Position numbers and translations under genes: made by a program | Notes under the pieces: generated by a model | Databases searched by the model: none | Told to the model about the DNA's origin: nothing | The model's input: only the letters and a program-made list of their open reading frames with translations | NCBI GenBank assembly: GCA_913052165.1 | Contig: CAJXEC010000002.1 | Location: 133-64,132, forward strand | Direction: 5' to 3' | Length of the DNA stretch: 64,000 nucleotides | Source of the DNA: an uncultured Rhodospirillaceae bacterium | GTDB taxonomy: Bacteria; Pseudomonadota; Alphaproteobacteria; MPNO01; UBA2964 | Part shown: piece after piece, positions 9,498-40,783 of the stretch | Position numbering within the stretch: the stretch's first letter is position 1 | Layout of the letters: every line of letters begins with the position of its first letter

Positions 9498-10826
9498 TCA
9501 GACAGATCGAAACTGATTTTTCGGGCGAGGAAGCCCAAGATTTTCTCTCAAAGTGTTACCTTCATAATCTTCTCGATAAATTCCCTTTTTCTGAAGAATG
9601 GGAACTAGTTTTTCGACGAAATCATCGAGGCCTTGGGGCAAATAAGGGAATTGTATTGTAAATCCATCGGCCCCACCGGTGGAAAGCCACTCCTCCATCT
9701 GATCAGCCACAAGCTCGGGTGGCCCCATTAGACAGAGGCTCGAGTGACCGCCAATCCTCTGGGCGAGTTGTCGGACTGTAAGACACTCCTCCTCGGCTAT
9801 TCGAATTGCTTTTTCTCTACTTGATTGTCCAGCATTTGTCTCCGGTATATCGGGTAGCATCTCGTCGGGGTCAAATACGGATGCATCAGTACCGAGGGCG
9901 ATGGATAAAGATGCTATCGCACTTTCAAAGTGAACGAGTGAATCGAGTTTAGCTCGTCTTTCCTTTGCGTCTTCGAGCGAATTGGCAATGATGACCATGC
10001 AAGCAGGTAGGATGTGCATGTGCCGAGGGTTACGACCGATTTGTTTCATGCGGCCCTTTATGTCTGAGTAAAATTCTCGAGCATGATCTATCGTAGGCTG
10101 GGACGTGAATACTACTTCAGCTGTTTCTGCAGCTAGTTGGCGTCCAGCGTTTGATGCGCCTGCTTGGACGATAACCGGCCATCCCTGGATAGGGCGGCCA
10201 ATGTTTAGGGGGCCGCGAGATTTCAGATATTTTCCTTGATGATTGAGTATATGCATTTTTTCTGTATCGAAAAAAATGCCAGTTTTTTGGTTGCGAACGA
10301 ATGCGTCATCCTCCCAGCTATCCCAAAGACCTGTAACGACGTCGTAAAATTCTTTCGCCCTACTGTATCTTTCGTCATGCTCCATTTGGAATTCTATCCC
10401 GAAATTTCTGGATGCATTGGGGTTCGCGGTTGTAACAATGTTCCAGCCCGAACGTCCTCCGCTGATGTGATCAAGAGAGGCAAACCGGCGCGCGACGTGA
10501 TACGGGGCATCATAAGTTGTTGATGATGTTGCAACGAGACCTATTTTCTTGGTGACCATGGCGAGAGCAGAAAGAAGCGTCATAGGTTCAAAAGAAGTTG
10601 GGGTGGCTGACCGCTTAAGCGCTTCAATTGGCATGTTTAGCAACGCAAGGTGATCAGCCATAAAGAATGTATCGAATTTTCCTTCTTCTAATTTCTGGAT
10701 AAACCGAATTATGTGGTTGAGGTTAAAGTTTGCATCAGCAAACCCACCGGGATATCTCCAGCCACCCGTGTGTATGGTGGCTGGTCTCATAAAAGCGTTG
10801 AAGTGAAGTTTTCTCTTAGCACTCAT
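9498..10826 (-). CDS. LLM-class flavin-dependent monooxygenase, NtaA/SnaA/DszA subfamily
   Basis: About 442 aa. N-terminus KLHFNAFMRPATIHTGGWRYPG is typical of the subfamily. I prefer ATG 10826 over the GTG at 10853 used by the ORF track. Confidence 0.85.
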   Translation of the reverse strand: MSAKRKLHFNAFMRPATIHTGGWRYPGGFADANFNLNHIIRFIQKLEEGKFDTFFMADHLALLNMPIEALKRSATPTSFEPMTLLSALAMVTKKIGLVATSSTTYDAPYHVARRFASLDHISGGRSGWNIVTTANPNASRNFGIEFQMEHDERYSRAKEFYDVVTGLWDSWEDDAFVRNQKTGIFFDTEKMHILNHQGKYLKSRGPLNIGRPIQGWPVIVQAGASNAGRQLAAETAEVVFTSQPTIDHAREFYSDIKGRMKQIGRNPRHMHILPACMVIIANSLEDAKERRAKLDSLVHFESAIASLSIALGTDASVFDPDEMLPDIPETNAGQSSREKAIRIAEEECLTVRQLAQRIGGHSSLCLMGPPELVADQMEEWLSTGGADGFTIQFPYLPQGLDDFVEKLVPILQKKGIYREDYEGNTLRENLGLPRPKNQFRSV

Positions 10827-17714: not shown

Positions 17715-18545
17715 CTAAGAGACTTTCCATTCTGCCCAACCGCATCCAACATAGACTTCTGATATCGGAGCGTAATCAATCAATTTGAACCCCTCACCAT
17801 TCATTGCCGCATGGGCAATTATCCAACTCCGGATTTCTTCGCTCCCATTCCCCACAGTTGGAAGGTTTTTTACAAGCTTTTCAATAATTTCGGTTTCATT
17901 TGCTTTTGAGAATAATGCAATACAATCTTGATCAAATCGTTCGTCAATTTTGCCCATATTAGGTTCGCCGATAGAGTGACTGAGGCCACCAGATCCGATC
18001 ACTGCAACTTTGAGATCCTCCGGGTAATTTACTATAGCTGATCGGATCATTCGACCCCAATCGAAGCAGCGTTTTATGCTAGGCATGGGTTGCTCAAGCT
18101 CGTTTACAAAAATCGGAATAACTGTAGGTAGTGGGTCAAGCCCCAGCTTCCATAGTGGGATACAGAATCCGTGGTCGAGATTTACATTGTAAGATAGGGA
18201 TGGATCAAATCCGCTTTCGAATGCCGTGTCTGCCAGGTGGCGAGAGAATTCAGGGTGCCCTTCTATTTTTTCATATTGGAACTTCGGAGATAAAAATGGC
18301 TCCGGAGGTCCTCCGTGTTCGGGTCCGAGGCCAATACAAAAAGCCGGTAGGTTGTCCAAAAAGAAATTTACCCAATGGTCGGGGGCCAGCATAATAATAA
18401 GATCAGGACAAAGTTTTTTTATCCGGGACCTCATCTCACTAAAACCGGAACTAATCTTTTGTTTAGCCTCTGTTGGGAGTATATCCCAGTCGCGAGCAAT
18501 GAGTGGGGCGTGGCTTGAGGCGAAGGCACCAACTAACTGAGCCAT
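17715..18545 (-). CDS. class III extradiol ring-cleavage dioxygenase, LigB-family catalytic subunit
   Basis: 276 aa. N-terminus MAQLVGAFASSHAP, then PDHWVNFF and GSGGLSH motifs typical of LigB/protocatechuate 4,5-dioxygenase beta-like proteins. Confidence 0.8.
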   Translation of the reverse strand: MAQLVGAFASSHAPLIARDWDILPTEAKQKISSGFSEMRSRIKKLCPDLIIMLAPDHWVNFFLDNLPAFCIGLGPEHGGPPEPFLSPKFQYEKIEGHPEFSRHLADTAFESGFDPSLSYNVNLDHGFCIPLWKLGLDPLPTVIPIFVNELEQPMPSIKRCFDWGRMIRSAIVNYPEDLKVAVIGSGGLSHSIGEPNMGKIDERFDQDCIALFSKANETEIIEKLVKNLPTVGNGSEEIRSWIIAHAAMNGEGFKLIDYAPISEVYVGCGWAEWKVS

Positions 18546-18546
18546 A

Positions 18547-18810
18547 TCAATGTCGCTCCGAAGTGTTAATTTTTCTTAGACGCTCTATAAATTCTTTATC
18601 TCCCATTCCACAAATCCCGCAATAAAACCGAAGTAGGTAGGCATTTACGTGCGGTGCGATTGCCGCAAGGTTATCATCCCTTACTGCCTGCTTCATTTCT
18701 TCGCTAATGGGATACTGCTCTAAAAACGGTTCTCTATCAGCGCGCCAACTGCTCACATCACCAGATTTCTGGAGGTCAAACATCATTTTACTAAGCCAAT
18801 AGTCTGTCAT
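18547..18810 (-). CDS. LigA-like small subunit of the extradiol dioxygenase
   Basis: 87 aa with the LigA-domain pattern (W/FRADREPFLEQYPISEEMKQAVRDDN..NAYLL). One-nt gap to the LigB-like gene. Confidence 0.68.
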   Translation of the reverse strand: MTDYWLSKMMFDLQKSGDVSSWRADREPFLEQYPISEEMKQAVRDDNLAAIAPHVNAYLLRFYCGICGMGDKEFIERLRKINTSERH

Positions 18811-18824
18811 AATCGCTCTTGATA

Positions 18825-19271
18825 TCAGGTCAAATCCTCGAGCACTTCTGCTGGATGAATAGCTGCTTCTGGGTTTTCATATATTTTTAAGATTTTCATA
18901 TCGGGTCCGAGCAAATAGGACATACGTTTGGGGCGCTCTTGGTCCCGAGTTTCGACAGCCCCATAAGAAATCGCTACACTTTTCGATTGATCCGATAACA
19001 AGTCTCCAGTCAAGGCATTATCTTCTGACCATCGCTTCAGCTCCTCGGGCAGACTAAATGTAATTCCAATAGGAATCGCATTCTGTTCTAAAAGTCCCTG
19101 GGTTCTATCACGGAACCCCTTTGCTTCGTTTGTTCACCCGCCGCCATATGCCCTTGGGAAAAACCAAACCAGTACATTTTGCCCCGCACAGTCGGAAAGC
19201 TTGATTAAATCACCATTTTGATTGGGTAATTCAAAGTCTGGAGCTAATTCGCCGATTTTTAGATTGGCCAT
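18825..19271 (-). CDS. BCP/PrxQ-type peroxiredoxin with in-frame TGA (candidate selenocysteine) at the peroxidatic position
   Basis: Reading from ATG 19271 (GAGG RBS about 12 nt upstream) gives one frame of 148 codons to TGA 18825. It has a single internal TGA at 19134..19136: MANLKIGELAPDFELPNQNGDLIKLSDCAGQNVLVWFFPRAYGGG-U-TNEAKGFRD...LLSDQSKSVAISYGA...HPAEVLEDL. The protein is colinear with full-length BCP. The TGA replaces the Cys of the F-x-P-x-x-x-x-x-G-C-T-x-E-A-x-x-F-R-D motif. The ORF track reports only the 62-aa tail. Confidence 0.7.
19091..19122 (-). promoter_or_regulatory. candidate bacterial SECIS stem-loop 3' of the UGA
   Basis: In mRNA sense: AAAG GGGUUC CGUGAUA GAACCC AGGGA CUUU. 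It has a perfect 6-bp upper stem (19113..19118 with 19100..19105) and a 7-nt loop containing GU. A 4-bp lower stem closes across a 5-nt bulge. The upper stem starts 15 nt after the UGA. Confidence 0.5.
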
Positions 19272-19296
19272 TGGATTGCCCTACCTCTACAAAAAC

Positions 19297-19354: not shown

Positions 19355-20716
19355 TTAAATATTTAGCATCGATACAAGAGGGCGGACATCGGGTGCGCTT
19401 TTAAGCCCTGCCCATGCATGGGTTATTTCTTGCGCTCGATTTGAACCAATGATTGGCTCAGCCTGTTTGGAAAATTTTGTCGCAATCTCTTCGCTCGTCA
19501 TAGGATTTTTAGGGTGCCCAGGCGGGTTTCGACTCTTTGCTTCCAGAATGGTTCCGTTTTTCATCCTGGTTACGACCCTCACAGCTAGGTTCTCGCGCGT
19601 CATTGCCTCTATATCTTCGTCTATCGTAACAACAATCTTGTTCATCAGCGGGCGCAATGTTGGGTCCAGAACTTTTGCCTCAGAAAATGAAGCAATGGAC
19701 GGAGGACCGTCGGCGAATGTCCGGGCGAAAATATATGGCATCGAATGATCCGCTGTTTCTCGAGTTTGAGGATCCCACTTTTCAGGTCCACCCGCGATTT
19801 CATGTTTTCCTTGTGAGTCACAGAAAATTTCAATGACCTCTATCTCCTCAATAGACGAAAAACCCAATTTTTCCCTTAGCTCAAGAGCCGCCCAAACGAC
19901 TGGCTGACCGCTTGCTTCTAATGGCCAATATTTTATCTGCACCTCCTCAAACCGCATTTTTCCTCCCTGATGAGGAAGGGGATCTATTATGAATGGTCCT
20001 GTAATATTGTCGAACAAACCGGCCCGACCTTCAAAAATGCTATCAGGCCCAGGCATACCCTCCGCGGCTAACATGGCGGCAAAAGTTGCATTGCGGGCCG
20101 CGAACGGTGTCGCCACATTTTTCCATGCAGTTAGAGCTCCAGAACGAGATACTCGAAGCGGAACAGTGGCGCTTCCTGTTATACTGATGGCGTTTGCCGT
20201 TTGTTCAAATGACAGTCCCAAAAGGCGCGAAAGTCCTGCAACTGCAGAAATCCCAACAGCGAATCCCTGATCCCAACCTCGCTCCCGAAGCTTGGAGGCT
20301 TCGGTAATACGAATAAAAGTCTCATAGGTAATAAGGGCCGAAAGAATCAACTCTCGACCGGTAATTTTTGTCGATCCAGCGAGCGCTAAATGGGCTCCGA
20401 GCCCATCTGATGGATGTCCACCGGGAAATCGATCATTGAAATCGTAATTGCGGATCATACAGCTATTAATAAAACCGGCCATATCGAGCGGCATCGTTTG
20501 TGCATTGAATAAAGTTTTGCCGGCGAATTTGCCGGGGGTTTGTCCAAAGGAAATTTCTTTACCGATATTTGCTGGCAGAGTGTTTTTTGCCGCTAAAGCG
20601 CATCCAATAGAATCGATAATGTGTTGTGCCAACAAGTCCGGAATGTGTTCAACAATTTCGTCATATTTCCAATCACATGAAAAACGGGCTATTTCCTGGG
20701 TTAAGTTATCCACCAA
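19355..20716 (-). CDS. MmgE/PrpD-family protein (2-methylcitrate dehydratase-like fold)
   Basis: 453 aa. Family-typical N-terminal region (FSCDWKYDEIVEHIPDLLAQHIIDSIGCALAA) and C-terminal ADHSMPY motif. Confidence 0.85.
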   Translation of the reverse strand: MVDNLTQEIARFSCDWKYDEIVEHIPDLLAQHIIDSIGCALAAKNTLPANIGKEISFGQTPGKFAGKTLFNAQTMPLDMAGFINSCMIRNYDFNDRFPGGHPSDGLGAHLALAGSTKITGRELILSALITYETFIRITEASKLRERGWDQGFAVGISAVAGLSRLLGLSFEQTANAISITGSATVPLRVSRSGALTAWKNVATPFAARNATFAAMLAAEGMPGPDSIFEGRAGLFDNITGPFIIDPLPHQGGKMRFEEVQIKYWPLEASGQPVVWAALELREKLGFSSIEEIEVIEIFCDSQGKHEIAGGPEKWDPQTRETADHSMPYIFARTFADGPPSIASFSEAKVLDPTLRPLMNKIVVTIDEDIEAMTRENLAVRVVTRMKNGTILEAKSRNPPGHPKNPMTSEEIATKFSKQAEPIIGSNRAQEITHAWAGLKSAPDVRPLVSMLNI

Positions 20717-22458: not shown

Positions 22459-22506
22459 TCTTATGTGACGAGAAAGCAATTTGCTGTCGAACAAATAAGC
22501 AGGTTA

Positions 22507-23237
22507 TCAATTTTTCTGCTCTTTAAGCGCTTGATTTAGACGTGGTATTACCTGCTCAGCCGTCATTCGCAGAGATCTTTTGGTCAACGTTTCATCAACC
22601 CAGTCCATGCCAGCTACAATCAACGCCCAAAAGTTGCCAACTTCGGCCCGCAATAAAAAAATTGATCTACCACTCCGTTTACAGTGCCGGATACTACTAT
22701 GTCATCGACGATCCTGCCCGGTGTGAGGGCCTCATCTGGTTCTTCAGAATGCCCTCTAAAACTCCGCGTCTTCCGGCTCCTTTAAATTTGGTCAACAACT
22801 GGTTGTGGTAAAATCTATATGGGCTGTTTGCATCAAACTTTCCTTACCGAGAGGCCAGTATTTCATCATCTGCAATGAATATAATTCGAGCGATTTTTGA
22901 GTCCATTTGATTCGCTTTTATTCCTGCATCGTGAAAGCCTTGTTGATAATTTTGTCATGAGGAGGTTGGCGGAGAAGGGGTAGCAGTGAGGTCGTCCCAT
23001 TTCGACCACCTCTCTGGAAAATGATATTACCACCGAACCGACTATTTAAGGGTGAGGGTTTTTCAGTGGTTTTGGCATAACACCTAAGTCAAATCCCGGA
23101 TTGAAAAATGTTCTCAAACAATTGGATCATAGAAGCCGAGCTGATCACATACGATGATGGTTTCCCGATCATCTCGGGGGGTAGTTTGGTAATCCCGACT
23201 CAATAGGTTGATGGGCATGGTAATAAACGAGACGCAT
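22507..23237 (-). pseudogene. decayed LLM-class (luciferase-like) flavin oxidoreductase
   Basis: No long ORF exists, but minus-strand fragments in different frames resemble LLM proteins. FDLGVMPKPLKNPHP is followed by TAA. GTVNGVVDQF is another fragment. The C-terminal frame reads AEVGNFWALIVAGMDWVDETLTKRSLRMTAEQVIPRLNQALKEQKN then TGA at 22507..22509. Several stops and frame changes lie between them. The 5' limit is uncertain. Confidence 0.6.
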
Positions 23238-23278
23238 TTGACCTTCGTTATTACCCCTAGAGATCTAAATATTTTCTT

Positions 23279-25550: not shown

Positions 25551-28334
25551 TTATTCCGCTGCAGCCGCGCCTTTATTCATAGGCTCGACTTTAGCCGCAC
25601 AGAACTTGAATTCCGGAATTTTTCCTAGGGGATCAAGTTGGGGGTTGGTTAAAATATTAGCCGCGGCTTCCGAAAAGCAGAACGGAACAAAGATCATATT
25701 TTCCGGAACTGAGCGGTCCTCCCTTGCTTTGATTGATATGTGTCCCCTCCGGGTTTTAATGCTTACCAATTCTCCTGGCTTGACCCCTAACCTCTCCATG
25801 TCTCTATAATTAAGACATGCAATTGCTTCCGGCTCTAAAGCGTCTAAATTCACTGCGCGCCGGGTCATCGCGCCAGTGTGCCAATGTTCAAGAAGTCTTC
25901 CAGTAGAGAGGATCATAGGATATTCATTGTCGGGTAGCTCATCTGGTGGAACAATATCTACAGGAACTATTTTTGCTCGTCCGCTAGAAGTCGGGAATCC
26001 GTCTCCGAATATTATTTCCTCCCCTGGGTTTTCGGGCGCCAGACAGGGGTAAGTCACAGAGTTTTCTCTCTCAACCCTTTCCCAGGTAATATTGGCCAAG
26101 GAAGGCATGATTTTTGACATTTCTGCAAAAACATCGCTGGGATCTTTATAATTCCAATCTAACCCTATTCTTATCGCTAATTCTTTAATGAGCTCCCAGT
26201 CTTGACGGGCATTGCCGGGCGGTTCTATTGCCGGACGAGCCATTTGTACTTGGCGATTGGTGTTGGTGAAGGTACCGGATTTTTCTGCATGGGCGGAAGC
26301 GGGTAAGACTACATCTGCGTGCCAAGCCGTTTCGGTGAGAAAAATATCTTGGACAACTAAGTGTTCTAGAGACGCCAAAGCTTCCCGTGCATGATTTTGA
26401 TCAGGATCGGACATGGCCGGGTTTTCACCAAGTATATACATCCCCTTGATTTGGCCTTGGAGAATTGAATTGACAATTTCTACGACTGTTAGCCCTCTTT
26501 GGGGATCTAAATCTTGTCCCCAAAACTCTTGGTATTGCTCGCGGATTTCTTTGCCTTCAACCGACCTGTAGTCGGGATAAAACATTGGGATCAGGCCTGC
26601 ATCTGAGGCCCCTTGCACGTTATTTTGTCCACGAAGAGGATGAAGACCTGTCCCGGGTCTTCCTACCTGCCCTGTCACTAGCGAGAGAGCGATCAGACAT
26701 CGCGCATTATTAGTTCCATGGACGTGTTGTGAAACCCCCATTCCCCAAAAAATGATGGAGGCTTTGGACGATGCGTAAATGCGCGCGACCTCTCGGATAA
26801 TATTTGCTGGTATACCACAAATTTTTTCCATCTTTTCGGGCGGGAAGTCCGAGATTTTCTGCTTTAACTCGTCATACCCATCTGCATTGGACTGAATATA
26901 TTGTTTGTCGGCTAAACCCTCTGAGATAATCGTATGAAGCATGCCATTGAGTAATGCGACGTCGCTGCCTGGTTTAAATTGAAGCATATGGCTCGCGTAT
27001 CTTCCGAGGCCAGATTGATGTCCCCTAGGGTCCATGACAATCAATTTTGCCCCTTTTTTTGCCGCGTCTTTGATATAAGTTGCGGCGACGGGGTGATTTT
27101 CTTCCGGGCGTGCCCCAATGACGATTATGCATTCTGCGTCCTTAGCGGCTGTAAAAGGTGCTGAAACAGCACCAGAATTCAAGCCCTCCATCAGTGCTGC
27201 AACAGAGGATGCGTGGCAAAGTCTGGTGCAATGGTCCACATTATTAGTTCTAAACCCCTGTCGGATGAGTTTTTGAAATAAATATGCTTCCTCATTTGAA
27301 CATTTAGCGGATCCAAAACCTGCTATCGCGTTGCCACCATCTCGCTGAAAGATTGCTTTTAGCCCAGAGGCTGCCCTGTCTAGTGCTTCCTCCCAAGTGG
27401 CTTCTCGAAAAACTTTCTCAATTCTTTCACTCCCAATTTGGATGTCTGCTTGCTTTGGTACATCATCTCTGCGGATTAAGGGTTGGGTTAGTCGGTCTGG
27501 GCTATGAACGTAATCAAATCCAAAGCGCCCCTTCACGCAAAGCCTATTGTTATTTGCTGGACCATTTTTACCGTCGACAAAGAGTATCTTAGAATCTTTG
27601 ACATTTACATTGGTTTGACATCCTACTCCGCAAAACGGGCAGAGTGTTTCCACGGATCTTGTCTCAAATTCTGTTCTTGTACCCGAGGCATTCAATAGGT
27701 TCGCTTCCATCAATGCACCTGTAGGACAAGCTTGCACACATTCCCCGCAAGCGACACAGGTCGACTCACCCATGTTTCTGTCGAAATCAAAAACAATTTT
27801 TGATTGATGGCCCCGATATGCGAGCCCAATTACATCATTTACTTGAACTTCACGACAAGCCCTGACACACAGATTGCAGTGGATACAAGCATCAAGGTTA
27901 ACGGCGATTGCCGAGTGAGAATTGTCCGGCTCAGGCTGGTCCGCGCTTGGAAGACGATTAGTTTTCGTCACCCCCATCGCATCAACCCACCCCCAAAATT
28001 TTGACTCAGGATCATGGCTGATCTGTCGCTCTGGCTGATCCGCCAGCAAAAGTTCAAAAACCATTTCCCGAGCTTTCTTGGCACGTGCTGACACCGTTTT
28101 CACTCGCATGCCCTCTGTCGGTTTTCTTATGCATGAGGCAGCGAGCGTTCGTTCACCCTCTACCTCGACCATACAGGCTCGGCAGTTTCCATCTGCGCGA
28201 TAGCCAGGATCTGGTTGCCAACACAAATGTGGTATTTCCACACCGGTCCTCGCTGCAGCCTCCCATATTGTCTCACTTGGTTCAGCGGTGATGGTTTTGT
28301 CATCAAGTTCGAAGGTGATTTTTTCAGACATCAT
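25551..28334 (-). CDS. fdsA: NAD-dependent formate dehydrogenase, catalytic alpha subunit (Cys type)
   Basis: 927 aa. It has an N-terminal 2Fe-2S motif (CRACMVEV), two 4Fe-4S ferredoxin motifs (CIHCNLCVRAC, CVACGECVQACP) and the MopB 4Fe-4S motif CPFCGVGC. The active site NNVDHCTRLCHASSV has Cys where E. coli FdhF has Sec. Confidence 0.93.
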   Translation of the reverse strand: MMSEKITFELDDKTITAEPSETIWEAAARTGVEIPHLCWQPDPGYRADGNCRACMVEVEGERTLAASCIRKPTEGMRVKTVSARAKKAREMVFELLLADQPERQISHDPESKFWGWVDAMGVTKTNRLPSADQPEPDNSHSAIAVNLDACIHCNLCVRACREVQVNDVIGLAYRGHQSKIVFDFDRNMGESTCVACGECVQACPTGALMEANLLNASGTRTEFETRSVETLCPFCGVGCQTNVNVKDSKILFVDGKNGPANNNRLCVKGRFGFDYVHSPDRLTQPLIRRDDVPKQADIQIGSERIEKVFREATWEEALDRAASGLKAIFQRDGGNAIAGFGSAKCSNEEAYLFQKLIRQGFRTNNVDHCTRLCHASSVAALMEGLNSGAVSAPFTAAKDAECIIVIGARPEENHPVAATYIKDAAKKGAKLIVMDPRGHQSGLGRYASHMLQFKPGSDVALLNGMLHTIISEGLADKQYIQSNADGYDELKQKISDFPPEKMEKICGIPANIIREVARIYASSKASIIFWGMGVSQHVHGTNNARCLIALSLVTGQVGRPGTGLHPLRGQNNVQGASDAGLIPMFYPDYRSVEGKEIREQYQEFWGQDLDPQRGLTVVEIVNSILQGQIKGMYILGENPAMSDPDQNHAREALASLEHLVVQDIFLTETAWHADVVLPASAHAEKSGTFTNTNRQVQMARPAIEPPGNARQDWELIKELAIRIGLDWNYKDPSDVFAEMSKIMPSLANITWERVERENSVTYPCLAPENPGEEIIFGDGFPTSSGRAKIVPVDIVPPDELPDNEYPMILSTGRLLEHWHTGAMTRRAVNLDALEPEAIACLNYRDMERLGVKPGELVSIKTRRGHISIKAREDRSVPENMIFVPFCFSEAAANILTNPQLDPLGKIPEFKFCAAKVEPMNKGAAAAE

Positions 28335-30031
28335 AAGTCCCCTGGGAAATATTTCATGACTGAAAGAAGTGGGTTAGGCGCGGCTTGTCCCAAGCCGCAA
28401 ATGGAAGCATCTGCCATTACATTTGCCAAATCGTTAAGGGTTTCCATATCCCACTTTGGTTCCGCCATTAGTGCTATCGCTTTCTCTGTCCCCTGCCGGC
28501 AGGGTGTGCACTGACCGCAGCTCTCGTCCTCAAAAAATTTCATAAGATTTAGCGCTACATCTTTCATGTCATCTTGATCAGAGAGAAAAATTACTGCGTG
28601 AGACCCAACAAAGCAGCCATGCTCTTCTAATGTTCCAAAATCTAACGGTAGATCGGCAAGGCTCTCAGGTAGTATGCCTCCAGAGGCTCCGCCGGGCAGG
28701 TAAGCTTTAAACGCATGTCCATCACTCATTCCATCGCAATAATTTATCAGAAGTTCACGAGCAGTCGTTCCAGCTGGCGCTAATTTTACGCCTGGATTTT
28801 TGACTCGCCCAGAAACCGAGTAGCTGCGAAGTCCTTTCGAACCTCGCACACCATGACTGGCAAACCAATCCGCTCCCTTCTCAAGGATTTTTGGAACCCA
28901 AATAAGAGTTTCGACATTATTAACGAGCGTGGGACGGTCGAAAATACCAGCTTGCGCAACATATGGGGGCCTGTGTCTGGGAAGTCCCCGTTTTCCCTCA
29001 ATCGACTCAATCATCGCGGACTCCTCCCCACAGATGTAAGCACCTGCACCGCGACGTAAATGAACCTTAGTATGATTTGTGAGGCCTGCTGTTCGTAAAG
29101 CTGAAATTTCTTTTAAAAGAATTTTGTAGACGGCTGGGTATTCATCGCGGAGATAAATATATATTGCTTCCGCCTCGACAGCCCAAGCGGCTATCAGCAT
29201 ACCCTCCAGAAATGCATGGGGCTCACGTTCTAGATAATGACGATCCTTAAAAGTACCAGGTTCACCCTCATCTGCGTTTACGGCCATCATCCTGGGACCT
29301 GGCTGTGATCGAACCAAATCCCATTTTCGGCCCGTCGGGAAACCGGCTCCACCCAGCCCCCGAAGCCCGCCATCAGATAGTGCTGCAATGACCTCGTCTC
29401 GTGACCTGCCACCTTCGATGCAAGATCGCAATATGTTATACCCCGTTGATGCCAGCCGCGCTTCTAAGTTTTCATAGTCCGGTATGATGGGGTCCCGGGT
29501 ACCAGATGCAATGGTAGATAAAACGCTATCCACAGCCGCATTATCAACGTGATGGTGACCTACTTCGCACACTGGTGCTTGGTCGCAACGACCCATGCAA
29601 GGTGCGCGTATGATGCGAACGTTCAGTGGGGATGATCTCTCCAGAGCCGACATAAGGGTATCTGCACCTTTAAGCATGCAGCTCAGAGAGTCACATACTC
29701 TTACGGTAGTTTCTGGAGGGGGAACCTGATCGTCATGGACGATATCAAAATGCGCGTAAAAAGACGCAGTTTCATAAACTTCTGACATTGGAATTCGCAT
29801 TTCCTCTGCCAGGGCATGTAATAGCCCGGCGGGAAGGAAACCTTTTTTATCTTGAACCAAATGCAGATATTCAATCAGAAGATCTCTGTTTCTCGGGGTG
29901 TCTCCGAGAATTACCCGAATCTCTTCAAGGTCTATGTCGTCTAGGACTCTTCCCTTCGGAAATCTCGGGGCCTTACGACGTCCTGAGCCCGGGTGGACTT
30001 TACTCGGCGTTGTTGTGGTGGGCTGGTCCAT
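28331..30031 (-). CDS. fdsB: formate dehydrogenase beta subunit, fused NuoE-like plus NuoF-like domains
   Basis: 566 aa. N-terminal NuoE-type 2Fe-2S motif (CDSLSC...CMGRCDQAP). NuoF-type GLRGLGGAGFPTGRKW FMN/NADH site and C-terminal ESCGQCTPCR cluster. 4-nt ATGA overlap with the alpha gene. Confidence 0.9.
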   Translation of the reverse strand: MDQPTTTTPSKVHPGSGRRKAPRFPKGRVLDDIDLEEIRVILGDTPRNRDLLIEYLHLVQDKKGFLPAGLLHALAEEMRIPMSEVYETASFYAHFDIVHDDQVPPPETTVRVCDSLSCMLKGADTLMSALERSSPLNVRIIRAPCMGRCDQAPVCEVGHHHVDNAAVDSVLSTIASGTRDPIIPDYENLEARLASTGYNILRSCIEGGRSRDEVIAALSDGGLRGLGGAGFPTGRKWDLVRSQPGPRMMAVNADEGEPGTFKDRHYLEREPHAFLEGMLIAAWAVEAEAIYIYLRDEYPAVYKILLKEISALRTAGLTNHTKVHLRRGAGAYICGEESAMIESIEGKRGLPRHRPPYVAQAGIFDRPTLVNNVETLIWVPKILEKGADWFASHGVRGSKGLRSYSVSGRVKNPGVKLAPAGTTARELLINYCDGMSDGHAFKAYLPGGASGGILPESLADLPLDFGTLEEHGCFVGSHAVIFLSDQDDMKDVALNLMKFFEDESCGQCTPCRQGTEKAIALMAEPKWDMETLNDLANVMADASICGLGQAAPNPLLSVMKYFPGDL

Positions 30032-30119: not shown

Positions 30120-31790
30120 TTAAAATAGTCCTTCAATTTGCCCTTCCTCATTCAGTCTTATGGAGGCTGCTGAAGGCACTCGAGGCAGGCCTGGCATCGT
30201 CATTACGTCCCCGCAAATCACCACAATGAATCCTGCCCCTGCTGAGAGCCGCACCTCTCTGATATTTACATCAAAGCCCTCCGGGGCCCCCATTAATTTA
30301 GGGTCGGTAGAGAAGCTCAGGGGAGTTTTTGCCATACAAACTGGAAACTTTCCATAACCTCGTTTTTCCAATGTCGAGAGTTGGTTATGCACCGCAGTTG
30401 AGGCCGAGACGGTTCCAGCTCGGTATATTTTTTTGGCAACTGTCTTTATCTTTTCCCAGAGTGGCATTTCATCAGGGTAGAGGTATTCAAAACTATTAGG
30501 CTGATTGGACATTGCAACTATTTCATGCGCTAGCTCTTCGGCTCCGGCAGCACCGTTAGCCCAATGCGTGCACTCAACAGCTTTTGAACCTGCGTCTCCG
30601 CATATGTCTTGGAGAAGCCTTATTTCCGCATCAGTGTCAGTTAGGAACCGATTAATCCCGACCACTGCGGGAACCCCAAAGCTTTTAATGTTTTCTATGT
30701 GTCGCAACATATTAGCAGCACCAGTCCGGACAGCCTCAACATTCTCTTTGCCCAAATCCTCTTTGGCAACGCCTCCGTGCATTTTTAGAGCGCGAACGGT
30801 CGCGACAAGTGCGACTGCATCGGGCTGAAGGCCCGCGGACCGACACTTTATATCGAAAAATTTTTCGGCCCCAAGGTCTGATCCAAAGCCCGCTTCTGTG
30901 ACAACATAGTCAGATAGCGCCAGTGCTGACTTTGTTGCGGACACGGAATTACAGCCATGTGCAATATTAGCGAAGGGACCGCCGTGGACAAATGCCGGGG
31001 TATGTTCAAGCGTTTGCACCAGGTTAGGCAGAATGGCTTCCTTAAGCAGCACTGTAAGGGGGCCCTCGGCTTTTAACGCATCTGCTGTAATGGGTTCCCG
31101 TCCACGCGTCTCCGCGATAACGATTCTGGCGATTCGTTCTTGCAAGTCTTGGAGGTTATTGGCCAGGCAAAAAATTGCCATAATCTCTGAGGCCACGGTT
31201 ATATCAAACCCTGTTTCACGGGGAAAACCATTCACGGCCCCTCCCAATGAGGCAACGATTGATCTCAATGCCCTATCATTAAGGTCAACCACTCGTCGCC
31301 AAGCTACCCGTCGGGAGTCAATTCCAAGACTATTTCCCCAATAGATATGGTTATCGATAAGAGCTGATAGCAAATTGTGCGCCGATGTGATTGCATGGAA
31401 ATCACCGGTAAAATGAAGGTTTATGTCTTCCATTGGAACAACCTGAGCATATCCTCCACCAGCTGCTCCTCCTTTCACGCCGAAGCATGGACCAAGGCTG
31501 GGTTCCCTGAGGCAGATGGTTGCATTTTTCCCAATTCGGTTAAGCGCGTCACCCAACCCAACCGTTGTCGTGCTTTTGCCCTCTCCCGCTGGGGTGGGGC
31601 TAATGCCGGTAACAAGGATTAATTTGCCTTTTCTCGACTCATCACCGAGAAAACTTACGTCTACCTTTGCTTTTGTGTGACCGAATGGTTGCAAATAATT
31701 ACTCGGAACGCCCAGCTTTTCGGCAATCTCCCCGATTGGCTTGATTTTGGCCTCACGCGCTATTTGTAAATCGGATTTTACCTCTGACAT
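30120..31790 (-). CDS. fhs: formate--tetrahydrofolate ligase
   Basis: 556 aa with highly conserved Fhs motifs ([43 protein letters not shown]). Confidence 0.96.
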
Positions 31791-32256: not shown

Positions 32257-33993
32257 TTGGTTGAAAATGCTACGGATAATTTGGACACCCATCCGGTTGA
32301 TGAACCATTAACTGATGGTTTTCACCTAATTATTGATGCGTTGAAGCTTAACGGGCTCACCACTGTCTACAATGTTCCCGGTATCCCGATTACAGATCTC
32401 GGCCGGATGATGCAGGCTGAGGGTATGAGAGTTCTCTCATTCAGACATGAACAGAATGCCGGTTATGCCGCATCAATCGCAGGGTTTTTGACAAAAAAAC
32501 CGGGCATCTGCATGACGGTCTCTGCGCCTGGTTTCCTCAACGGACTAACTGCGTTGGCTCATGCTACCACAAATTGTTTTCCGATGATCCTCATGAGCGG
32601 CTCGTCAGAACGAGAAATTGTTGATTTGCAGCAGGGTGACTACGAGGAGATGGATCAACTTGCGGTTGCAAAACCGCTTTGCAAAGCGGCTTACAGAGTT
32701 CTCCATGCAGAGGATATCGGTATTGCTGTGGCGAGGGCAATTAGGGCAGCAGTATCTGGAAGACCGGGTGGAGTCTATTTGGACATACCCGCTAATTTGC
32801 TAGGTCAGACAATGAATGTTGATGCGGGGCTCAAATCCCTCGTGAAAGTTGTCGATCCTGCGCCAGCACAAATTCCCGCACCGAGCTCTGTAGACCGTGC
32901 GATTGAAGTCATTCAAAACGCAAAACGACCTCTGATTATTCTTGGCAAAGGGGCCGCTTACGCTCAAGCCGATGATGAAATTCGCGCTTTTGTGGAAAAG
33001 ACAGGGATTCCCTACCTCCCAATGAGTATGGCAAAGGGCTTGCTTCCTGACACTCATCCACAATCAGCGGGGCCCGCTAGGTCACTCGTCTTAAAGGAGT
33101 CCGATGTAGTGATCTTGATCGGTGCGCGGCTTAACTGGCTTTTATCCCATGGCAAAGGAGAGGGTTGGGGAAAAAATCCGAAGCGGTTTGTCCATATTGA
33201 TATCGAACCGAGGGAAATGGATAGTAATAAAGAAATTGCGGCTCCACTGGTCGGCGATATTTTTTCTTGTGTTGAGTCATTATTGGCCAGAATCGGAGAT
33301 GAATGGGCTGCACCGCCGAAAGAATGGCTCAGCTCGGTTTCGGAAAAACGGGATGCTAATATAGAGCGTATGGCACCTCGTCTTCAAAACAACAATGTGC
33401 CAATGGACTATCATGGTGCCTTAGGTGCTCTCAAAAATATCATTTCAGAGCGACCCGATGCTATTTTGGTCAATGAGGGGGCAAATACTCTTGATTTCGC
33501 GCGCTCAATCATTGATATGCACAAACCCCGCAAACGTTTGGATGTGGGTACCTGGGGCGTTATGGGCGTCGGTATGGGTTCGGCGATTGCTGCCGCAGTA
33601 GAGACAGGACAGCCCGTTCTTGCGGTAGAGGGGGACAGCGCATTTGGGTTTTCCGGGATGGAAATAGAGACAATTTGTAGATACAACCTGCCAGTTTGCG
33701 TAGTGGTCTTCAATAACGGGGGTATCTATCGAGGGACGGATACAAATCCTGCGGGCGAAGACGTCGCTACAACTGTCTTCGTTAAAGGGGCCCGCTATGA
33801 TAAGATGATGGAGGCTTTTGGTGGCGTTGGTTTTAACGCTACCTCGCCAGATGAGTTGTCCCGAGCAGTAAATGAGGCGATGGATTCTGGTAGGCCATCC
33901 CTCGTAAATGCTGTTATTGACGAAGGATCGGGTACCGAAAGTGGTCGTATCGGCAATCTAAATCCTCAAAGCGTTGTGTCACAGAAGAAATAG
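32257..33993 (+). CDS. oxc: oxalyl-CoA decarboxylase (ThDP-dependent)
   Basis: 578 aa, near-colinear with Oxalobacter formigenes Oxc as I recall it. Shared blocks include [79 protein letters not shown] start. Confidence 0.95.
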
Positions 33994-34031: not shown

Positions 34032-35300
34032 ATGAAAGCTCTAGAAGGCGTGAAAATTCTGGATATGACCCATGTTCAATCGGGTCCTACCTGTACTCAA
34101 TTATTGGCTTGGTTTGGCGCGGATGTTTTGAAAGTTGAGAGGCCTGGCGTGGGAGACGCGACAAGAGGACAGCTTCGTGATGTTCCCGATGCTGACAGTC
34201 TTTATTTTACGATGCTTAACCACAACAAAAGGAGCGTGACCGTCAATCCTAAAACTGAGTCCGGTAAGAGGATTTTTACTAGGCTTCTTGAAGAGTGTGA
34301 TGTCATGGTGGAAAATTTTGCTCCCGGGGCTATCGATCGCATGGGTTTCTCATGGGAGATAATTCAGCAAATCAACCCTCGTCTCATATACGCCTCAATT
34401 AATGGCTTCGGCCCAGGACCTTATGAAGAATGCAAGGTTTATGAAAACGTTGCACAGTGCACCGGAGGCGCCGCTTCGACGACAGGATTTCTTGATGGGC
34501 CTCCGATTGTTACTGGGGCGCAGATTGGTGACTCCGGTACCGGTCTCCATCTCGCACTTGGTATTGTCACGGCTTTGTTTCAACGTGAGCAAACTGGCAA
34601 AGGACAGCGCGTGTCCTGTGCGATGCAAGATGGAGTTTTGAATCTTTGCCGCGTGAAATTAAGAGATCAACAGCGCCTGGAGCGGGGGCCCCTCAAGGAG
34701 TACAGCCAGTTTGGTCAAGGTATACCTTTTAAGGAGGCAACGCCGCGTGCTGGAAATGACTCTGGCGGTGGTCAACCGGGCTGGATTCTAAAGTGTAAAG
34801 GTTGGGAGAGTGACCCCGACGCTTACGTGTATTTTATTACTCAAGCCGCAGTTTGGGGTAATATTTGTGATCTTATCGGTAAGCCTGAATGGAAAGATGC
34901 AGAGGGATATGCTGCACCGGAAGAGCGCTTAGATAAAATCCCACAGATCTTTGATGCGATAGAGGAATGGACCAAGACCCTCGACAAGTTTGAGGTTATG
35001 AAACGCTGCAACCCTTTGAACATCCCATGTGGACCCATCCTATCCATGAAGGAGCTCTCGACAGAGCAAAGTCTCAGAGAAACGGGAACAGTTGTAGAAG
35101 TCGATCACCCACAGCGGGGCCCGTATTTGAGTATTGGCAATCCCATCAAGCTGTCGGATTCACCCTCTGACGTGACGAGAGCCCCATTGCTTGGTGAACA
35201 CACAACTGAAATATTGCGGGAAATTGTTGGTTTGAGTGACGAAGAAATAGCTTACGCAGTTGCTGATGGTGGTACGGGTAAAGAGGCTACAGACTCCTGA
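34032..35300 (+). CDS. frc: formyl-CoA:oxalate CoA-transferase (class III)
   Basis: 422 aa. Matches recalled Frc blocks: [71 protein letters not shown]. Confidence 0.95.
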
Positions 35301-38660: not shown

Positions 38661-39533
38661 ATGGCAGAAGAATTAGCGAGATCTGGCGTAATACTGCCAG
38701 AGATTGATTTGGCGGGCGGCGTTGCCCTCATAACAGGCGGCGATCGCGGCTTAGGTAGGTCTATGGCTGAGGCCATAGCGCGGTGTGGGGGGCGTGTTGG
38801 CATCGCTTCTGTTGACCCAAATGGATGTATCGAATTGGCTGATGAACTTAATGCAAGGTATGGGACGGGTGCAGCCTGTGGCTTTCCCCTCGACGTCACG
38901 AATTTAGCTCAATGCCGAGAAGCCGTTAAACAGACGGTTTCACAGTTTGGTAAGCTTAACATATTATTTAACAATGCAAGGAGGTTAATGCGAGGCCATG
39001 GATTACCGCCAACTGGAAACTCACTCCCGATTTGGGAGACCGACCCTGATATCTATGCGGAGACAGTTACTGTAAATGTCATTGGTACTTTCAATATGGC
39101 TCGAGCGGCGGTTGAATATTTTCGGAGCCAAAATGGCGGGAAGATTTTAAATATATCAACTTCTTTAAGAAATTTTTCTTTCGCCAACAACTCCCCTTAC
39201 GGCGTCACTAAAACAGCATTGGAATCTCAAACGTTGATTTGGGCAGCGGAGTGTGAAGCAGAGAACATTATGATTAACTCGATATGTCCTGGTGGGGCCG
39301 TAGACTCTGATCTTTCTCGGCCTGATCGTGAGAGCAGAAAATTGCAACCGGTGGACATAATGGATCCACTGGCTGTTTGGCTTGCCTCGGAGCACTCAAA
39401 TGGGGTTACAGGTTGCAGGTTTAACGCGAAATTTTGGGATCCATCGGTAAATTTTAACCAGGCAGCGAGAGGCGCACGGGAAGAGCCGGTGTTTGCGCTT
39501 CAGCCGGAGGGAAGGTTTTCAGTTTTGGATTAA
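38661..39533 (+). CDS. short-chain dehydrogenase/reductase (SDR)
   Basis: 290 aa with TGGDRGLG cofactor motif, NNA, catalytic S...YGVTK, and a GGAGG RBS. Paralogue of 62101..62973. Confidence 0.85.
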   Translation: MAEELARSGVILPEIDLAGGVALITGGDRGLGRSMAEAIARCGGRVGIASVDPNGCIELADELNARYGTGAACGFPLDVTNLAQCREAVKQTVSQFGKLNILFNNARRLMRGHGLPPTGNSLPIWETDPDIYAETVTVNVIGTFNMARAAVEYFRSQNGGKILNISTSLRNFSFANNSPYGVTKTALESQTLIWAAECEAENIMINSICPGGAVDSDLSRPDRESRKLQPVDIMDPLAVWLASEHSNGVTGCRFNAKFWDPSVNFNQAARGAREEPVFALQPEGRFSVLD

Positions 39534-40711
39534 GAGTGGCGTGATCTAGCTCTGAGTAGGGCCGAGAATGCGCTTGCCACAACGTTCCTTTGGATTTCAC
39601 TGGTCCCTGCAAATATTGATAAGCGCCGCGATTGCAATCAAGTCGTCGTGATATAAATTTCTCCAGACTCCGTCCTAAATGGTGCTGAATTGGCACCATC
39701 TGGTCCTGCGGCCCCCAATGGGAGATCGGCAAGTTCTTGGGTGGTCTCGGTGGAAAAAGTTTTATGAAAGATGACTGTGCGCCAATCGCAAGTTTCGCGC
39801 TTGCCAGTTGGACGGCATGGGCGAACACTGAGGCCTGTCCAAGGACTCTAATTTGGGATTGAGTTGGTTATCTTTAGGGGATGGGTCATCGTTTTTTCGA
39901 GTAACTTTGGCGACTTACTGTATTTTTCCAAGTTCTTGAGGGCGGCTTGAGGGTCTGCATTACCAATCCTCTCCCAGTCCAAGAGGCTTTCGGCAAGGGG
40001 CCAACCTTTGTCAATTTCTCCAACTAAGTTGTCTAATGGTACCTTAACCTGGTCGAAAATTTCTTGAGCAAATTCTGCATCACCCGCGATCGTTTTTATG
40101 GATTTGATGGTAATTCCTGGAGTGTTCTTGAGGTCAATTAAAACCAATGTTACGCCGTCCGTCTTCCGGTTCACCTGTTGGGTTGATCCAAAGAGAGCAT
40201 ACATCCAGTCTGCATGCTGGCTTTAGGTGGTCCAGATTTTTTGACCGTTTATGACGATTTGGTCCTTCACTACGACTCCGCTTGTTGTGAGATTGGCTAA
40301 GTCTGAACCTGCACCTGGTTCCAAGTAGCCTTGGCACCATCAAATTTCTCCTGACAGAATATTTGGTAAATGAAACTCTTTCTGTTTTTGTGTTCCAAAT
40401 TTCATTATAATTGGGCCGATATGGTTCAGCGCTTGGCGCGATAGCACCTGTGGACCTGCTCGTCCAAACTCTTCCTGCAAGATTAGCTGTTGGTCGACAC
40501 TTGCATCCGTGCCGCTATATTCTTTTGGCCAATGTGGCGCGATCCACCCCCGTTGATAAACTTTTTTATACCATGACTGAAATAACCCCGGGGGCGGTCG
40601 TGTTGCCCAACCCCTAAGATTATCGGGCAAGTTCTCTCTCAGCCATGAACGAACTTCTTCTCGAAAAATTATATTTTTTTTGTCATCGGCGATGAAGTTG
40701 ATCGGTTCCAT
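39530..40711 (-). pseudogene. acyl-CoA dehydrogenase pseudogene (full length but disrupted)
   Basis: One frame from ATG 40711 reads a typical ACAD. It is interrupted by in-frame TGA (40340..40342, ...[22 protein letters not shown]...), TAA (40223..40225, ...GQKIWTT*SQHADWMYALF...) and TAG (39848..39850). The C-terminal third then needs frame changes to read IGAQSSFIKLF, then STETTQELADL, then SIFAGTSEIQRNVVA. Confidence 0.75.
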
Positions 40712-40783
40712 GAAGACCACCGACTCCTGTCGGAAAAGATCTTATTTTTTTAAAATTCGGTCCTTGCTGTCAATGGAGGCGCA

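Follow-up and report, generated by a model that had tools for sequence, protein, structure and literature searches.

The gene described here lies on the minus strand of a 64,000-nucleotide stretch of contig CAJXEC010000002.1 (assembly GCA_913052165.1) from an uncultured Rhodospirillaceae bacterium; this whole stretch is referred to below as the window. Very probably, it is a functional gene encoding a selenocysteine (Sec)-containing peroxiredoxin (Prx) of the BCP/PrxQ-like type. Its in-frame TGA is not a sign of decay and almost certainly encodes Sec at the catalytic site. The TGA alternates with cysteine (Cys) codons among homologues of the protein, is followed by a hairpin that is conserved and covaries in the TGA forms, and precedes a segment bearing the marks of selection on a coding sequence.

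From the ATG at 19271..19269 to the TGA at 18827..18825, the minus strand holds one frame of 148 sense codons, the sole internal stop of which is the TGA of codon 46 (19136..19134). A mechanical list of open reading frames (ORFs) holds only two pieces of it, one of 45 residues (19134..19271) and one of 62 residues starting with TTG (18825..19013). TGA is a regular stop in the window, where it terminates 13 of the 39 ORFs of at least 250 codons. A scan of the window for further pairs of ORFs linked through a single TGA brought up shadow frames or ordinary gene ends, and none besides the prx gene is convincing.

The protein analyses used a product with Cys in place of the TGA. Its residues 6-128 align with positions 1-122 of the 124-position Pfam AhpC-TSA profile, scoring 86.8 bits where the cut-off is 26 (E = 1.4e-24). 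Ungapped phmmer alignments to the BCP structures 2ywn/4g2e, 2cx3/2cx4, and 5epf set codon 46 on the peroxidatic Cys (CP). Pro39 and Arg116 are invariant in the alignments, the latter corresponding to the Arg of K-R-x-T/S-F/Y in BcpB. The structure was approached by proxy, using an AlphaFold2 model of a Cys orthologue (P0002, 51% identical, with the same GGGC motif). In this model, which has a predicted local distance difference test (pLDDT) score of 92.8, CP sits in the first turn of a helix spanning residues 44-55 (alpha2). Its top Foldseek matches, 9a4d_B, 5epf, and 3drn, are BCP/PrxQ proteins, with E. coli BCP, M. tuberculosis BcpB, and Sulfolobus Bcp1 as the best-matching proteins, and its superposition on BcpB (5epf) gives a template-modelling (TM) score of 0.89 and a root-mean-square deviation of 1.9. 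The initial annotation had read the same single frame, interrupted by a lone TGA on the peroxidatic Cys and preceded by a ribosome-binding site: its translation is identical to the present one, the alignments to 2ywn and 2cx3 agree on the position of CP, and a Shine-Dalgarno-like stretch is found ahead of the ATG (Table 1).

A scan with one genome per species yielded 56 related loci, for which the codon at the peroxidatic column was read from the DNA. It is TGA in about 40 of them and TGC or TGT in 13. Counted as distinct homologues, 43 carry TGA at the codon-46 column, with identities down to 34% and from several phyla. A Cys codon (TGC/TGT) occupies the same column in 12-13 homologues, including P0002 and P0003 (49-52% identity), in which the Cys is likewise embedded in GGGCT. 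Loci with TGA belong to many metagenome-assembled genomes (MAGs) of marine Rhodospirillales/Alphaproteobacteria and to Marinimicrobia/Neomarinimicrobiota, as well as to an Acidobacteria gp7 MAG, Thermodesulfobacteriota, Deltaproteobacteria, and a Winogradskyella MAG (Bacteroidota). Each TGA homologue has a single internal stop, the second stop seen at one locus being its terminal one. The nearest locus in the species scan, at 94% identity, belongs to the 'Rhodospirillaceae bacterium' MAG JAYQSL01. The relatives L010 and L001 (94-95% identical) carry TGA and the hairpin, not TGC; in L030, with 61% amino acid identity, the frame is likewise intact and both TGA and hairpin are retained.

In a rough neighbour-joining tree, these sequences fall into two main branches, in both of which Cys forms are nested among Sec forms. 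The first is alphaproteobacterial, with the motif F/Y-G-x-x-U; the second gathers sequences of the Fibrobacterota-Chlorobiota-Bacteroidota (FCB) group, deltaproteobacteria, and Acidobacteria, with the motif S/D-T-P/G-G-U. Nested Cys forms devoid of the hairpin are L024, L028, L035-L037, and L059 among the alphaproteobacteria, and L044, L049, L050, L054, L055, and L060 among FCB and other hosts. A second Cys at CP+5 is present in most nested Cys forms, the exceptions being L024, L028, L044, P0002, and P0003. The branching of this rough tree suggests repeated Sec-to-Cys switches coupled to the gain of a resolving Cys.

The hairpin behind the TGA resembles a bacterial selenocysteine insertion sequence (SECIS). 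Its 6-bp stem begins 15 nt past the UGA codon and carries a 7-nt apical loop, with a UGA-to-loop spacing of 21 nt; the same element is also recovered as an inverted repeat. Six of six pairs form in 41 of the 43 distinct TGA sequences, as against none of the 12 Cys sequences, in which two to four pairs form. Two classes can be distinguished. In class A (27 distinct sequences from alphaproteobacteria and two Desulfobacterota), standard pairs fill each of the 162 cells. Class B (14 sequences) has a 6-nt loop and is paired in 84 of 84 cells, with compensatory double changes at two pairs, UA<->CG in six sequences and GU->UA in one. Its covariation score was matched by none of 500 column shuffles, and pairing falls to 56-57% when the partner is slid by one column. 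The register of the 3' arm relative to the reading frame differs by 1 nt between the two classes, and the arm encodes different residues, [A/C]GA-A[C/U]C-C (R-T/I-Q/P) versus GAA/G-UUC (E-F). This shift, together with the change of encoded residues, points to a constraint acting on the RNA and not on the protein.

Codon choice in the Sec forms preserves the stem as well as the loop. Gly is encoded by GGG or GGA only, Phe by TTC in 36 of 36 cases (genes of the window prefer TTT, 322:121), and Arg by CGU or CGG in 43 of 43, whereas the Cys forms have CGC, AGA, CGA, and others for this Arg. These choices set the loop start to C-G-[U/G], which supplies the G[G|U] of the bacterial SECIS consensus. 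The constraints published for bacterial SECIS elements comprise a loop of 3-9 nt, a stem of 4-16 bp, a G within the first two loop positions, a UGA-to-loop distance of 16-37 nt, and a minimum free energy (MFE) of -7.5 kcal/mol or below (PMC13188914). The window hairpin lies within all these ranges, with its loop starting CGU and an MFE of -9.4 to -10.0 kcal/mol when flanks are included. Two TGA homologues, L039 (10127-10174) and L046 (598-645), are devoid of the family hairpin and display other small hairpins at the same distance: in the former CCGG-GUU-CCGG, which reaches -9.5 kcal/mol when two outer pairs are counted, and in the latter UGCG-GGA-CGCA, at -3.2 kcal/mol. Since their loops start G[U/G], the SECIS seems to have been remodelled there, not lost.

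Variation within the population bears on the segment past the TGA. More than 23 contigs of the Tara, JGI, Logan, and ENA assemblies carry the exact 45-residue head. Eleven copies of the gene represent ten alleles; every one keeps the TGA of codon 46 and an unaltered 19-nt hairpin, with stops at codons 46 and 149 only. Downstream of the TGA, 25 of the 43 variable sites are third codon positions (binomial p = 7e-4). In the comparison with L010, the ratio of nonsynonymous to synonymous substitution rates comes to about 0.3 before the TGA and after it alike, an estimate from few differences. Judged from these comparisons, the part downstream of the TGA evolves as coding sequence, under purifying selection. 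The initial annotation had preferred Sec recoding over decay and had pointed to a hairpin past the TGA. Both proposals are upheld, by the Sec/Cys pairs, the covarying hairpin specific to TGA forms, and the coding-like evolution downstream; L010 and L001 have no TGC at this codon, and none of the ten alleles bears an additional disabling mutation.

A mechanism can be proposed from the established bacterial Sec pathway and from Prx chemistry. The UGA hairpin, with its CGUGAUA loop, would act as a bacterial SECIS and recruit SelB-GTP-Sec-tRNA(Sec), the ribosome then inserting Sec rather than terminating. The terminal UGA (18827..18825), devoid of such a hairpin, would terminate translation normally. 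The U46 selenolate, predicted at the start of helix alpha2 and beside Arg116, would attack the peroxide and yield a selenenic acid. A 1-Sec mechanism is expected because no resolving Cys is conserved: none is present at CP+5, where position 51 is Lys and the Sec forms have G, K, S, or others, and Cys28 of the window protein is Tyr in L010 and L001, the closest relative included. The enzyme would thus be recycled by an external thiol reductant, for which thioredoxin or glutaredoxin/glutathione are candidates.

Several observations weigh against the reading as a functional Sec-Prx gene, and some of them concern the hairpin. In class A, stem changes are one-sided only (GC/GU/AU), and the 5' arm and loop coincide with the conserved GFRD peptide. 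Folds of the single sequence, over 71 and 141 nt around the TGA, are no better than those of shuffles (z = 0.18 and -0.45, respectively). About 11% of the synonymous recodings of GFRDRTQ give six pairs by chance, so that the hairpin is convincing only by comparison across homologues. The core hairpin alone reaches -7.1 kcal/mol, slightly short of the published -7.5 kcal/mol; the energy criterion therefore depends on the lower stem, which is weakly conserved (72% and 88% of its cells are paired across homologues).

Others concern the protein. The best NCBIfam family is Bcp (NF006960, thioredoxin-dependent thiol peroxidase), with 91.3 bits for a cut-off of 140. Within the active-site motif, P-R-A-Y-G-G-G-U, Pro39 and U46 are present and the Thr position of PxxxT/SxxC is occupied by Gly43, the counterpart in the ungapped alignment to 2ywn being P-A-A-F-T-Q-V-C. 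Across the alphaproteobacterial clade this residue is Gly, whether the form is Sec or Cys. L003, a Sec homologue of the Marinimicrobia type, clears the Bcp cut-off (161.6 versus 140 bits), and the PrxU equivalog model (NF040737) is not matched by the window protein (21.3 bits for a cut-off of 270). The BCP/PrxQ identity claimed in the initial annotation is therefore upheld in part: the full-length AhpC-TSA match and the BCP alignments support it, but the motif it quoted has Thr where this protein has Gly, and the Bcp score stays below the cut-off. Both features render peroxidase activity less certain than for a textbook BCP, and the sequences are best described as a divergent BCP-like clade.

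With the universal Prx Thr missing, no resolving Cys, and a score below the Bcp cut-off, the alphaproteobacterial PxxxGxxU/C clade could also be seen as a functionally distinct, undescribed selenoenzyme derived from BCP, and not as a general peroxide scavenger. In this genus its gene is flanked by a PrpD-like gene and by the genes of a LigAB-type extradiol ring-cleavage dioxygenase; in that setting, such an enzyme might reduce organic hydroperoxide by-products or protect the Fe(II) dioxygenase, Sec compensating for the missing Thr. This reading is an unlikely, though conceivable, one.

The third group of contrary observations concerns the Sec machinery. ARAGORN detects no tRNA-Sec in the window, which contains no tRNA gene at all, nor in the 56 related loci. 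A tblastn search with E. coli SelA, SelB, and SelD gives no match in the window or in about 1.1 Mb of these loci (20-kb flanks), and Pfam analysis of the approximately 53 window ORFs reveals no selenium-related family. As 64 kb is a small part of a genome, these absences are weak counter-evidence. When E. coli SelA was searched against databases, the best 120 matches were enterobacterial only, and none was linked to the MAGs encoding Sec-Prx. Formate dehydrogenases (FDHs) are the commonest bacterial selenoprotein family; the FdsA-like subunit encoded in the window is uninterrupted and has a Cys (HCTRLC373HASS) where selenoprotein FDHs carry Sec. The organism thus has an FDH in Cys form while apparently using Sec in a peroxiredoxin.

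The lack of Sec machinery in the window and the related flanks, and the Cys-type FDH, would both fit an orphaned gene, belonging to a Sec-encoding family in a lineage that has lost selABCD, so that the full-length protein is no longer expressed and the gene has not yet decayed. Bacteria often lose the Sec trait (PMC1794560). Against this, the window, L010 (94% amino acid identity), and L030 (61%) have all kept TGA and hairpin in an otherwise intact frame, and purifying selection past the TGA in ten alleles would not persist without read-through. Sec machinery is, furthermore, known to occur in Rhodospirillales (PMC8124441), which offers general support only. Orphaning is accordingly judged improbable.

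Decoding of the UGA as something other than Sec is still less probable. It might involve a reassigned code (Trp as in genetic code 4, or Gly) or near-cognate read-through (Trp, Cys, or Arg), and the unobserved Sec machinery would fit it as well. Public protein calls do give 'W' at the column in the homologues P0001 (95% identity), P0004 (52%), and P0008 (38%), for which the DNA reads TGA. These calls stem from gene calling under genetic code 4 and are artefacts; the P0001 call also runs on into the following gene, past its real stop and another three TGAs. Furthermore, TGA terminates long ORFs in the window as noted above, Trp, Gly, or Arg would abolish Prx chemistry, and the column alternates with Cys only. 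A hairpin with a G[U/G] loop at SECIS distance is, in addition, what SelB-dependent decoding requires. More generally, public gene calls of the Sec-Prx family are systematically wrong (P0001, P0004, P0008, and their clusters L001-L004, as well as L005-L009 and L068-L077), being either code-4 Trp translations, sometimes extended beyond the true stop to 183 residues, or pieces of 45, 62, and 88-98 residues labelled 'peroxiredoxin family protein, partial'.

A pseudogene created by a recent TGC/TGT-to-TGA nonsense mutation, leaving a 45-residue fragment or no product, is hardly credible. Gene callers do split the gene into its 45- and 62-residue pieces, the window does harbor a truly decayed gene (acyl-CoA dehydrogenase fragments at 39530..40720), and the Sec machinery has not been seen in the window or the related loci. 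Nevertheless, chance nonsense mutations are unlikely to strike the catalytic Cys codon repeatedly, and the TGA stands at one column in 43 distinct homologues with neither a second stop nor a frameshift. The ten alleles retain it with downstream variation biased to third positions, and the hairpin is confined to TGA forms. Finally, an assembly or sequencing error as the source of the TGA is rejected, the identical codon being found in at least ten independent assemblies (different samples and assemblers) and in species-level relatives.

The Sec-Prx gene lies among co-oriented genes (Table 1), and probably forms one transcription unit with the LigA-like and LigB genes downstream (17715..18810). 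The order PrpD-like/prx/LigAB is conserved in L010 and L030, with flanking genes for a cupin, an iron-type alcohol dehydrogenase (Fe-ADH), a luciferase-like monooxygenase, and xanthine-dehydrogenase-type proteins. Clustering of the neighbourhoods of 25 alphaproteobacterial loci shows that context is conserved within sub-clades only; in L002, from the other sub-clade, where the above order is not kept, a UDG-family gene adjoins prx. These 25 neighbourhoods point to no functional partner and no reductant. Between the window and L030, the Prx (10001-10441 in the latter) is 61% identical, and its syntenic neighbours are 68-91% identical: 69% for LigB, 68% for the PrpD-like protein, 74% for both Fe-ADH and xanthine dehydrogenase, 84% for the LigA-like subunit, 87% for the luciferase-like protein, and 91% for the cupin. 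By this comparison, evolution is quicker in the selenoprotein than in its partners in the operon.

Table 1. Coordinates of the Sec-Prx gene, its elements, and other features of the window.
Feature	Coordinates	Strand	Evidence or remark
Full coding sequence (148 aa, codon 46 = Sec), very probably of a Sec-containing BCP/PrxQ-like peroxiredoxin	18825..19271	-	Frame, Pfam, PDB alignments, homologues, population variation
UGA almost certainly read as selenocysteine (U46), peroxidatic Cys position	19134..19136	-	Alignment to CP of 2ywn, 2cx3, 5epf; homologues; alleles
Shine-Dalgarno-like GAGGTAGGG	19279..19287	-	8-16 nt 5' of ATG 19271..19269; read from sequence
SECIS-like hairpin core	19100..19118	-	5' arm GGGUUC 19118..19113, loop CGUGAUA 19112..19106, 3' arm GAACCC 19105..19100
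Possible lower stem (tentative)	19091..19127	-	GAAG 19127..19124 with CUUU 19094..19091; MFE -9.4 to -10.0 kcal/mol
LigA-like subunit, 87 aa	18810..18547	-	14 nt past prx; NCBIfam protocatechuate 4,5-dioxygenase alpha, weak
LigB class III extradiol dioxygenase	18545..17715	-	1 nt past LigA-like gene; NCBIfam 7e-43
MmgE/PrpD-family gene	19355..20716	-	Upstream, co-oriented, 83 nt from prx start
NAD-type formate dehydrogenase FdsA-like alpha subunit, 927 aa	25551..28334	-	
Fused FdsB/FdsG-like Nuo51/2Fe-2S subunit	28331..30031	-	
Formate-tetrahydrofolate ligase	30120..31790	-	

The remainder of the window has, according to Pfam, ordinary chromosomal content, including ilvC, leuA, mreBC, PBP2, rodA, leuCD, and many catabolic oxidoreductases. 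Beside the formate genes, a thiamine pyrophosphate (TPP) enzyme (32257..33993) adjoins a family III CoA-transferase (34032..35300), a pair that, by its Pfam domains, resembles oxalyl-CoA decarboxylase and formyl-CoA transferase. The decayed acyl-CoA dehydrogenase gene, on the minus strand, retains an N-terminal fragment (40340..40720, Pfam Acyl-CoA_dh_N) and out-of-frame remnants (39848..40204 and 39530..39637); it is a true pseudogene, unlike prx. Between the genes for Fe-ADH and a PBP-like solute-binding protein, 820 bp (22459..23278) contain no ORF longer than 89 residues; at its gathering threshold, Rfam has no match there or elsewhere in the window.

The present gene is of practical value for annotation: it illustrates that standard gene callers still miss selenoproteins. 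It is also an indication that an uncultured marine Rhodospirillales-like lineage uses selenium, a point of relevance to trace-element ecology. Together, the 43 Sec and 12 Cys sequences provide a clean, compact example of a SECIS located in a coding region, and could serve to train SECIS and selenoprotein predictors. The Thr-to-Gly variant of the active site raises a small biochemical question; knowledge of Sec decoding and of peroxiredoxins is otherwise unchanged.

Selenocysteine-containing peroxiredoxins have been documented in several settings. They were reported from the Sargasso Sea metagenome (COG1225, TXXU motif, 43 sequences; Zhang, Fomenko & Gladyshev 2005; PMC1088965) and in the GOS (Global Ocean Sampling) data (pfam00578, TxxU motif, 253 sequences; Zhang & Gladyshev 2008; PMC2398784), and are present in 78 sequenced bacteria (PMC5029168). 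The window family resembles this marine family in being of the PF00578/COG1225 BCP type, with Sec at the peroxidatic Cys, marine bacterial hosts, and a SECIS right after the UGA. A GOS fragment (AACY02) shares a 90% cluster with P0001, the relative with 95% identity to the window protein. The Marinimicrobia/FCB branch (S-T-P-G-U) agrees with the published TxxU motif, whereas the alphaproteobacterial clade of the window has G-x-x-U (Y-G-G-G-U, F-G-N-N-U, and similar), with the motif Thr replaced by Gly. This clade also differs from the FCB/delta/Acidobacteria branch by a 5-residue deletion. PrxU of Eubacterium acidaminophilum, a Sec-peroxiredoxin shown biochemically (Söhling et al. 2001), likewise has Sec in place of the peroxidatic Cys and offers proof of principle for bacterial Prx as selenoenzymes. 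Unlike the window protein, it is a member of another Prx subfamily, modelled over 233 positions, and comes from an anaerobic Firmicute.

The Cys-type BCP/PrxQ proteins, of similar size (about 150 residues), are the best sequence and fold matches of the window family; they include E. coli Bcp, Xanthomonas campestris PrxQ, M. tuberculosis BcpB, Sulfolobus Bcp1/Bcp4, and Aeropyrum BCP. Shared features are Pro39, Arg116, the C/U-T-x-E...F-R-D motif, and a CP located where helix alpha2 begins. Unlike them, the window protein has Sec for Cys and Gly for the universally conserved Thr of PxxxTxxC. It has no Cys at CP+5, which is present in L035-L037, L049, L050, L054, L055, L059, and L060, and in this lack of a resolving Cys it is comparable to 1-Cys AhpE and 1-Cys BCPs. 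As for the RNA element, bacterial SECIS of the E. coli fdhF/fdnG type and the bSECISearch consensus (Zhang & Gladyshev 2005) are also intragenic stem-loops past the UGA, with a G then U/G opening a small loop. The window element, a candidate SelB site, differs from that of E. coli in being very short (a 6-bp core with a weak lower stem) and in showing no sequence similarity to it. The Sec-Prx family is abundant in the sea and has been known from marine metagenomes since 2005; the window gene adds a member to it, unusual only in having Gly for Thr at the active site and a very compact SECIS.

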